Positions 45,555 through 46,733 of a DNA stretch of 64,000 nucleotides are shown one piece after another. The position numbers and the translations under genes were made by a program. Under the pieces are notes generated by a model. The model saw nothing but the letters and a program-made list of their open reading frames with translations, ran no database searches and was not told the DNA's origin. The stretch lies in sequence record PQ666541; one strand, written 5' to 3'. The stretch's first letter is position 1, and each line of letters starts with the position of its first letter. The stretch comes from Shigella phage sb3.

Positions 45555-46733
45555 TTAAAAGTATTTTTTAAAACTCATCATAACTTTATCATCAACATCA
45601 TTATCAATCTGTGCAACAAGGTAAGATGACAGTTCTACTTCTTGTGGCGCGGATTGAACATTATCAGAATTAAGATATTCACGAATCCAAGGATATGGAT
45701 GTTTAACCGGAGCGTCGGTAATTGGGCATGGAAGACCGCACTGTTTCATACGAGATACAGTTAAGTAATCAATAAAACTCCACATGCTATTTGTATTTAA
45801 TCCAGGAACATCGCCATCTTTAAATAAATGAACTGCCCAATCTTTTTCTTGGCGGTTAACTTCCATGAAAATATCAACTGCTTCTTGTTCACACTCTTGA
45901 GCAATTTTAACCCATTCATCGCCATCAGTACCGGATTGAAGTTGACGAATAATATATTGGGTGCCTTTAAGGTGAAGCTGCTCATCACGTGCAATGAACT
46001 TCATAATCTTGGCATTACCTTCCATGATTTCCATGTTCTTATGGAAGTTAAAGGTACATGCAAAAGATACATAAAAACGAATAGCTTCTAAGGCATTAAT
46101 AACGTGCAAACAGAGGTAAAGAGATTTCATTAGTGCTCGTTTCCAATACATTTCATGCTCTATGGCTTCTTTAATAGCATCTTCGTCTGCGTTAAATTCT
46201 TTCTAGTTCTGTAAATCATCTTTAGCATTTTCCCATTCACGGGTTTTAGTCAGAACATCATCATAATAGCGACCGATAGATTCAGCACGTTTCATGATAG
46301 CTTCATCTAGTACAATCTCATCAAATACCTTTGACGGATCAGTATAAAGATTTCGCATGATATGGGTATATGAACGGCTGTGAATAGTTTCACTAAAAGT
46401 CCATGTAGCAACCCATGTATCAAGACTTGGGTCTGAAATTAATGACATAAGTACAGCAGATGGCGCACGACCCTGAATGCTATCTAGAAGTGATTGATAC
46501 TTCAGGTTATTAGTAAAAATATCTTGCTGATATTGAGGAAGCTTATTAAATTGTGCAGCATCCATCATTAAGTTTACTTCTTCAGGACGCCAGAAAAATG
46601 ACAACTGCTTTTCGGTTAAATCTTCAAAAACTTTATGACGTTGAATATCATAACGCGCAATACCAAGACCTGAACCGAAGAACATAGGTTCTTTTAAAAC
46701 ATCAACTGGGTTTGTATTAAAAACTGTGCTCAT
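45555..46733 (-). CDS. nrdB: Ribonucleotide reductase small subunit NrdB, intron-less, with an in-frame TAG at codon 177
   Basis: One 393-codon frame; radical-site region FSETIHSRSYTHI and iron ligands present; TAG at 46203-46205 in a poorly conserved linker. Confidence 0.85.

Follow-up and report, generated by a model that had tools for sequence, protein, structure and literature searches.

The nrdB gene of Shigella phage sb3 (PQ666541), analysed here in a 64,000-nucleotide stretch of that record (the window), is interrupted by an in-frame amber codon that was probably produced when two natural nrdB alleles were blended, a composite sequence being the most likely explanation for its presence. 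We propose the following origin. Two allele families, one like that of phage pSs-1 and the other like those of SF2-1 and JE01, would have been blended while the sequence was being produced, whether through a mixed sample, through a reference-guided consensus that deals poorly with indels and dense mismatches, or through some other in-silico step. At the left junction of the blend in nrdB, 13 nt of one allele class (class B; TTTACAGAACTAG) would have been placed in the register of the other (class A), 2 nt out of phase. The stop would then be a by-product of the blend, neither designed nor selected. The phage underlying the record most likely carries an intact nrdB of either class. This one pair of families accounts for the blends at nrdB, at alt, in gene 34 and in a small open reading frame (ORF) at 35666. 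We infer an artefact from the out-of-register strings and chimeric codons that make the stops, from a mismatch between indels and bases, and above all from a stop in an essential gene.

The nrdB reading frame and its neighbourhood

The window is a T4-like (Tequatrovirus) segment whose minus strand carries td, nrdA.2, nrdA.1, nrdA, nrdB, denA and rnlA (Table 1). The 393-codon NrdB frame that had been reported from the letters alone, running from 46733 to 45555 on the minus strand, is real. Its codon 177 is the amber TAG (46205–46203), its terminal codon is TAA, and the in-frame ATG at 46151 that had been named as a possible restart is codon 195, 54 nt downstream of the stop and separated from it by 17 codons. 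The whole frame is collinear from end to end with Escherichia coli NrdB (E = 3.6e-126; 1PIY and related entries). Conserved NrdB regions flank the TAG on both sides, as had been noted, and here the alignment to E. coli NrdB agrees with the PF00268 profile, which gives 72.9 bits for the N half and 61.9 bits for the C half at a gathering cut-off of 33.6. The equivalents of W48, D84, E115, H118 and Y122 of E. coli R2 align upstream of the TAG, and those of E204, E238, H241 and Y356 downstream. All six iron ligands, the Tyr122 radical site, W48, Y356 and the C-terminal tail are present, with the ligands distributed three and three across the stop. Since neither half has more than three of the six ligands, no active R2 would be expected from either; translation of the gene as written ends after 176 residues, the TAG at codon 177 breaking what would otherwise be a single frame for one polypeptide.

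The gene had also been described as intron-less and only about 50 bp from nrdA, unlike T4, and this description holds throughout. The frame is collinear with intron-less relatives and with the T4 exons, the T4 intron site falling at the equivalent of nrdB nt ~675, and an Rfam scan of positions 40000–56000 returned no match, including no group I intron RNA in nrdB. Between the last base of the nrdA stop codon, at 46785, and the nrdB ATG at 46733 lies a spacer of 51 nt, a length common to JE01, RB27, RB51, EPIMAM01 and pSs-1. Across the genomes compared, an intron-less nrdB with a spacing of ~50 bp is the usual Tequatrovirus layout, from which T4, with its mobE, nrdB.1 and intron, departs. In T4 the same gene bears a group I intron (I-TevIII) and mobE, in a region that mobile elements and recombination are known to reshape, whereas the window has neither the intron nor mobE; the T4 intron site lies ~145 nt downstream and the MobE nick ~400 nt upstream of the TAG. 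MobE nicks T2 nrdB at nt 122–126 (PMC2790892). With the nick there, the intron site at nt ~675 and the TAG at nt 529–531, we rejected a link between the stop and the target sites of MobE or I-TevIII.

Table 1. Features in and around nrdB, and the in-frame stop in gene 34, by window position
Feature	Position	Strand	Basis or remark
gene 34 (proximal long tail-fibre subunit), in-frame TAA	56329–56331		chimera of relatives' codons
nrdA, 754 aa, intact	46785..49049	-	ORF
nrdA–nrdB spacer, 51 nt; without mobE, without nrdB.1	46734..46784	-	sequence, ORFs
nrdB 5' half, 176 codons + TAG; W48, D84, E115, H118, Y122 equivalents	46203..46733	-	PF00268 72.9 bits
left flank, nrdB nt 481–515, class-B (JE01) type	46219..46253	-	base-by-base comparison
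hypervariable loop, helices αD to αE, codons ~171–200	46134..46223	-	translated relatives; E. coli R2 alignment
ATTTACAGAACTAG	46203..46216	-	last 13 nt = JE01 class B, displaced 2 nt
amber TAG, codon 177, nrdB nt 529–531	46203..46205	-	aligns with class-A Gln CAA
loop core, nrdB nt 532–595, class-A type	46139..46202	-	exact 18-mer and 29-mer with TH09, RB51
right flank, nrdB nt 596–640, class-B (JE01) type	46094..46138	-	base-by-base comparison
nrdB 3' ORF, 198 aa, start ATG 46151; E204, E238, H241, Y356, C-terminal tail	45555..46151	-	ORF, PF00268
denA (endonuclease II, GIY-YIG), intact; annotated start ATG 45527	45117..45527	-	ORF

Anatomy of the interrupted loop

The original prediction placed the stop in a variable linker, and rightly so, as the loop around it differs among relatives in both sequence and length. 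In translations of about 40 relatives, the NrdB segment between the motifs KTRxWxNA and KxxLMKSLYLCLH is hypervariable, spanning 14–45 residues and falling into at least eight unrelated allele classes; by alignment it corresponds to E. coli R2 residues ~170–188. The class-A loop (...KADIEYQKEINADEDDIKDAIEHEMYWKRELM) is found in RB27, RB51, TH09 and pSs-1, and the class-B loop (...KEFTELAKESPDAVFRLNRAIKQEAEAKRALM) in JE01 and SF2-1 (T4-like). Intact nrdB genes of both classes (JE01, SF2-1, RB27, RB51, TH09 and pSs-1) share with the window the gene order nrdA–nrdB–denA–rnlA, the 51-nt spacer and a length of 392 codons, and across the whole gene they are 94–96% identical to it. Class A and class B between them account for every part of the window's loop, yet the genes of these relatives are open and that of the window is closed by the TAG at codon 177.

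Compared base by base with these alleles, the loop is a hybrid in which class-B flanks and a class-A core are joined out of register. The flanks, nt 481–515 and 596–640, are identical to JE01, and class A departs from them at 5–6 sites per side, whereas the core, nt 532–595, agrees with TH09, RB51 and pSs-1. Immediately before the core, nt 519–531 (TTTACAGAACTAG) comprise 13 nt that are identical to class B yet stand 2 nt out of register; the leading A of ATTTACAGAACTAG also agrees with JE01 when the alignment is read by eye. With slashes marking the string in question, class B reads GA/A TTT ACA GAA CTA G/CT and the window reads GAT G/AT TTA CAG AAC TAG. The 2-nt shift of the class-B string thus causes GAA CTA GCT to be read as AAC TAG, exposing a hidden stop. 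Six bases of the region fit neither class in register, and all six lie within class-B strings at offsets of −2 and +12. Measured against a clean in-frame B/A recombinant with its junction at the common AAAGAA, the window shows +TG and −CT on either side of the 14-nt string, with the frame restored downstream; a single A-to-T substitution directly follows AAAGAA. The TAG is set among eight differences over seven codons, which together recreate the class-B string. No DNA is inserted between the halves of nrdB relative to the intact relatives, the two being separated by the stop codon alone.

Could the TAG instead be a simple nonsense mutation, or a single miscalled base, in an otherwise normal allele? 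A change of CAG to TAG would require one transition, and three 1–2-nt indels elsewhere in the window, all in base runs, do resemble ordinary read errors. The known class-A alleles, however, have CAA at this codon, which is two changes away from TAG, so that a simple point mutation does not account for it. The embedding of the stop in a recreated class-B string also speaks against a single event, as does the lack of any excess of private changes at conserved positions, and we consider such a mutation or miscall very improbable. The TAG is present in the sequence as described, but the alignment to relatives' nrdB genes, a check that had been suggested, shows that it is no isolated point change: the codon sits in an out-of-register class-B string. 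Classical T4 amber mutants likewise have an in-frame UAG, but the TAG of the window does not arise from a known sense codon by one base change.

General sequencing noise is not seen in the window. Four relatives agree at 16,338 positions, and at 40 of these the window has a private amino-acid state, against 42–88 in natural genomes. We therefore rejected a generally noisy assembly as the explanation: private states are no more numerous than in the best relatives, and the private changes in nrdA and nrdB are nearly all synonymous. With conserved positions this clean, the stops are not random read noise, and since the private changes in nrdB outside the loop are synonymous, the gene gives no sign of long-term decay. 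A copying-model (mosaic) test on nrdA gave a normal result, and this gene resembles that of an ordinary natural lineage.

Mosaicism in itself carries no weight for an artefact. Natural T4-like genomes are themselves fine-scale mosaics: when runs are counted against pSs-1 and SF2-1, the window scores no higher than TH09 or EPIMAM01. We rejected the argument that fine-scale mosaicism proves an artefact because these two natural genomes give similar counts and because the mosaic test on nrdA was normal. A simple simulation, in which class B was painted onto class A along a single global alignment, failed to give the exact loop, leaving at least 14 mismatches in 130 nt; the out-of-register strings were identified by direct comparison and not by this simulation.

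In-frame stops elsewhere in the window

We compared 80 annotated proteins of the close relative EPIMAM01 with the window, TH09 and SF2-1. In the window, six genes contain in-frame stops, eight in all, and small ORFs show in addition three frameshifting indels of 1–2 nt; for the same 80 proteins, TH09 and SF2-1 are free of in-frame stops. Three of the eight lie in the alt paralogue, and one each in the 30.3 homologue, the small ORF 35666, nrdB, an frd.2-like ORF and gene 34. TAA, TAG and TGA all occur among them, and the aligned residues are Q, K/L, W, E/L, R and Y.

The alt paralogue is collinear with the U115/pSs-1 allele type over 684 codons without gaps, and no record is more than 80.7% identical to it. 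Of the bases in the variable centre, 97.5% fit either the U115 type or the SF2-1 type. Where the two types differ by an indel, the window is in the U115/pSs-1 state in all ten cases, in several of which the directly adjacent bases are all of SF2-1 type. The choice of base follows the local likeness of the two types: the SF2-1 base is taken at ~93% of informative sites where the types are at least 70% alike, and the U115 base at ~80–93% of sites where their likeness falls below 50% (p = 1.5e-28). Two of the three stops in this gene lie within SF2-1-type strings (CAGATGAACTTC and CTGGGAAGAAATAACTA) that are read out of frame. The class-A nrdB loop and the U-type alt allele occur together in phage pSs-1.

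Other stops have a similar make-up. The TAA in gene 34 is a chimera of TTA, as found in pSs-1, TH09 and T4, and AAA, as found in SF2-1 and EPIMAM01, and it falls in a patch of 9–12 nt of pSs-1/T4 type between flanks of SF2-1 type. The TAA in ORF 35666, a neighbour of the 30.3 homologue, is a chimera of TTA (pSs-1) and GAA (others), and the stop in the frd.2-like ORF lies in the same kind of out-of-register string as that in nrdB. The stop in the 30.3 homologue, where TGG CTT has become TGA TTT, is a private change that is no chimera of the panel alleles, and it does not fit blending. In T4, gene 34 is essential; its nonsense mutants are fibreless, and their particles are non-infectious. A nonsense codon in gene 34 being incompatible with infectivity, the window as written is no faithful copy of a clonal, viable phage. 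Since the stops in nrdB and gene 34 share their signature, a common origin is the most economical reading of the two.

Searches for the same allele in other collections are consistent with an arrangement peculiar to this record. Among 527 phage records, the best match to the 121 nt around the TAG was 87.6% identical, and none of 913 phage-database matches, obtained in near and distant modes, had the window's junction. A pattern scan of IMG/VR did not find the hybrid junction, and a pattern scan of JGI metagenomes gave four hits, all of them due to chance and outside nrdB. Neither half-protein was found, as an exact match, among ~15 billion public proteins; a word-indexed protein search with the loop segment gave 16 candidates and was of little use. 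A split nrdB with the TAG was seen in none of the ~70 relatives whose nrdB was examined directly. Neighbouring genes were also used as queries. No record was found for the exact DHFR of the window. The exact RnlA is present in three Logan contigs, in which nrdB is an ordinary intact class-B gene, 91% identical to that of the window. The exact NrdA protein is present in 162 blocks of a public collection, and an intact nrdB, coding for 389 or 392 aa, comes after it in each of the eight places shown.

Two other sequences have an nrdB that is broken in the same loop, neither of them as the window's hybrid. In Escherichia phage vB_EcoP_EP32B (OR544955) the gene likewise forms two ORFs, but the loop is deleted, the frame is shifted by 1 nt in a run of A, and td is also split. 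In a metagenome contig with a coverage of only 0.6x, TGA stands in place of a conserved Trp codon. Both breaks look like record-quality problems.

Recombination, a two-piece subunit and recoding

Could the hybrid be a natural one? Co-infection by phages with class-A and class-B alleles, followed by recombination and possibly short-patch heteroduplex repair, may have given rise to an out-of-register hybrid and hence to a dead nrdB, in which case the phage would rely on the NrdAB of its host and on other reductase genes. T4 remains viable when its nrd genes are mutated, and T4 nrdB is dispensable on hosts that have their own reductase, so a real null allele could persist. Our search of the open-access literature found no source for the dispensability of T4 nrdB, and one review lists the gene as essential (PMC2988022). 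The gene lies in a known hot region of recombination, and one junction of a T2 × T4 recombinant has been mapped at nrdB nt 505–515 (PMC2790892), which is the left edge of the hybrid loop in the window. The fine-scale mosaic structure of natural relatives and the clean state of the window at conserved positions are likewise what a natural recombinant would show. However, a viable clone could not bear the stop in the essential gene 34 together with those in four other genes of the window. Crossovers would, moreover, have been needed at identities of 2–3 nt on both sides of the 13-nt string, and no other genome in the collections searched has the same allele. We regard a real null allele as the main rival, possible though rather unlikely, and favour a composite sequence.

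The original prediction left three options, namely a nonsense allele, an error or a split reductase subunit. An error, or else a non-functional allele, agrees with our results; a split subunit does not, as there is neither an intervening element nor any new tail. A putative working NrdB in two pieces would combine the 176-aa N half, a four-helix piece terminating at the amber codon, with a C half restarted either at ATG 46151, in the hypervariable αD–αE loop, or at ATG 46130, which encodes the Met of LMKSLY; the halves would assemble non-covalently around the di-iron site. It is conceivable that such a break would be tolerated, given that the loop accepts 14–45 residues of almost any sequence and that both halves are otherwise intact, and split genes for ribonucleotide reductase (RNR) are indeed known in phages (PMC3045599, PMC3653736). 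Most of these involve introns, inteins or endonuclease genes, with a few unexplained fragmentations (PMC3653736).

In Aeromonas phage Aeh1, mobE splits NrdA into NrdA-a and NrdA-b, and new tail sequences are essential for assembly (PMC3045599). Like the window, Aeh1 is a case of an RNR subunit gene of a T4-like phage encoded as two ORFs, but it has a homing-endonuclease gene and new tails, whereas the window has a stop codon only, and in NrdB rather than NrdA. New tails of the Aeh1 type were not found at the break, the loop sequence being entirely class A or class B. At the restart site, ATG 46151 and the ~25 nt upstream of it, as displayed in the alignment, are identical in the intact class-A alleles of TH09, RB51 and pSs-1; no dedicated signal was found there, and just a weak GAG is seen upstream by eye. 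The split is also unconserved in the relatives compared, and it would stem from the same blending that breaks gene 34. Taken as a functional arrangement, the two-piece subunit is in our view highly unlikely.

Recoding past the TAG, whether by an amber-suppressor tRNA of host or phage, by stop reassignment, by readthrough or by a hop from the AAC of codon 176 to an AAC 15 nt downstream, would keep the gene functional. Since class-A alleles have Gln at the position of the TAG, suppression in a supE host would bring that Gln back at codon 177, and the sequence does place matched AAC codons on either side of the stop. The stops of the window are, however, of all three kinds and at differing residues, which excludes amber-specific suppression or reassignment. 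We rejected amber-specific recoding and code reassignment on this ground and because a tRNA gene search found none in the window, hence no suppressor tRNA within it.

As for a hop, a matching codon within ~5 codons is expected by chance, and the stop is unconserved in relatives. The fold energy of the RNA around the TAG equals that of shuffled sequences (z = −0.16), and bypass and readthrough were rejected because no structure is seen there and because the arrangement is unique to the window. The likeness to the T4 gene 60 bypass is that AAC, which precedes the stop, occurs again a short way downstream; the window differs in having no take-off stem-loop, no conservation, and stops of three kinds elsewhere. 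We consider recoding of the amber codon very improbable.

What follows for the use of this sequence and for the phage family? The practical value of the finding is that of a warning. Variable patches in several genes of the window would be blends with stops unfit for a viable phage, and other odd findings in the window, such as stops, frameshifts and 'novel' alleles in variable regions, should be discounted pending a check of the reads. Were the two-piece subunit to prove true, it would be the first split R2 subunit to have arisen without an inserted mobile element and would represent a second, simpler route to a fragmented RNR; it would also mean that the eight-helix bundle of R2 can be built from two chains. 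As a by-product of the analysis, the αD–αE loop of NrdB is seen clearly as a hypervariable cassette in T4-like phages, with lengths of 14–45 residues and at least eight classes.

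Stops and frameshifts at other genes of the window

Reading frames other than nrdB are also interrupted in the window (see table), and at several genes the window blends two natural allele families, the pSs-1 type and the SF2-1 type. The stop in gene 34, the essential proximal long tail-fibre gene, is a chimeric codon that combines TTA, as read in the related phages pSs-1 and TH09 and in T4, with AAA, as read in SF2-1 and EPIMAM01; it lies in a patch of pSs-1 type with flanks of SF2-1 type, and this in-frame TAA was found in no phage record. The TAA in the small pSs-1-type ORF is likewise a chimera, of TTA and GAA, while in the frd.2-like ORF the TAT of pSs-1 has become TAG where the SF2-1 string ATTAG is displaced by 2 nt from its register. 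The alt paralogue is collinear with the U115/pSs-1 type, yet carries SF2-1-type strings out of frame, and the variable centre of the gene reaches at best 80.7% identity against any record.

The stop in the 30.3 homologue is a private dinucleotide change, with all four relatives reading TGG CTT, and a blend of two alleles does not account for it. In three small accessory ORFs the frame is shifted where a base run has a private change in length (A5 to A4, CC to CCCC, and a C lost after four Ts, respectively, in the order of the table). These changes resemble common read errors or slippage.

Features of the window considered in this part
Feature	Position	Strand	Description
218-aa ORF	5955-6611	+	lies between gene 18 (tail sheath) and gene 19 (tail tube)
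Base run	~15245-15249		private 1-2-nt length change
alt paralogue	30244-32295	-	three in-frame stops: TGA 31396, TAA 31180, TGA 30964
30.3 homologue	35317-35319	-	Trp to stop, TGG CTT to TGA TTT
pSs-1-type small ORF	35666-35668	-	in-frame TAA
Base run	~41014-41017		private 1-2-nt length change
Base run	~51401-51402		private 1-2-nt length change
frd.2-like ORF	52127-52129	-	in-frame TAG
Gene 34	55879-59745	+	in-frame TAA, codon 151, 56329-56331
td, pseT, gp32, DHFR, nrdA.1			proteins near nrdB entered in the exact-copy look-up

Public copies of the proteins near nrdB

Among about 15 billion public proteins, no exact copy was found for six of the 11 intact proteins looked up around nrdB (five of ten, plus DHFR); these are still 98-99.7% identical to known proteins. 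An independent public copy of the window's genome seems not to exist.

The NrdB loop and other broken records

In T4-like phages, the loop between helices aD and aE of NrdB (window equivalent 46134-46223) forms a hypervariable cassette, with 14-45 residues, at least eight unrelated allele classes and perfectly conserved flanks in the nrdB genes compared (L011-L050). The annotation of Escherichia phage vB_EcoP_EP32B (OR544955, 3001-4097) splits nrdB into 173 + 191 aa, with the break within this loop, as in the window; the loop is deleted, a 1-nt frameshift lies inside an A run, and the td gene is likewise split. In a metagenome contig of 0.6x coverage (L009, 640-760), the codon for the conserved Trp in TRxWENAK reads TGA. 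Both cases appear to be problems of record quality.

An ORF between tail genes, and a divided nrdA

The window's 218-aa ORF is absent from EPIMAM01, and in SF2-1 and pSs-1 its position is occupied by an ORF of about 200 aa. The window's ORF has no Pfam match; its Cys-rich and His/Asn motifs may point to a free-standing endonuclease.

The T4-like Logan contig SRR27829863_2001 (L064, 1330-7779) has several unusual features. A 544-aa ORF without Pfam matches lies between nrdA and nrdB, and td holds a group I intron without an ORF (1869-2084). Its nrdA consists of two ORFs, of 477 and 329 aa, separated by a NUMOD-like endonuclease gene (236 aa), with no Rfam intron match between them, an arrangement that may be an Aeh1-like case of genes in pieces.
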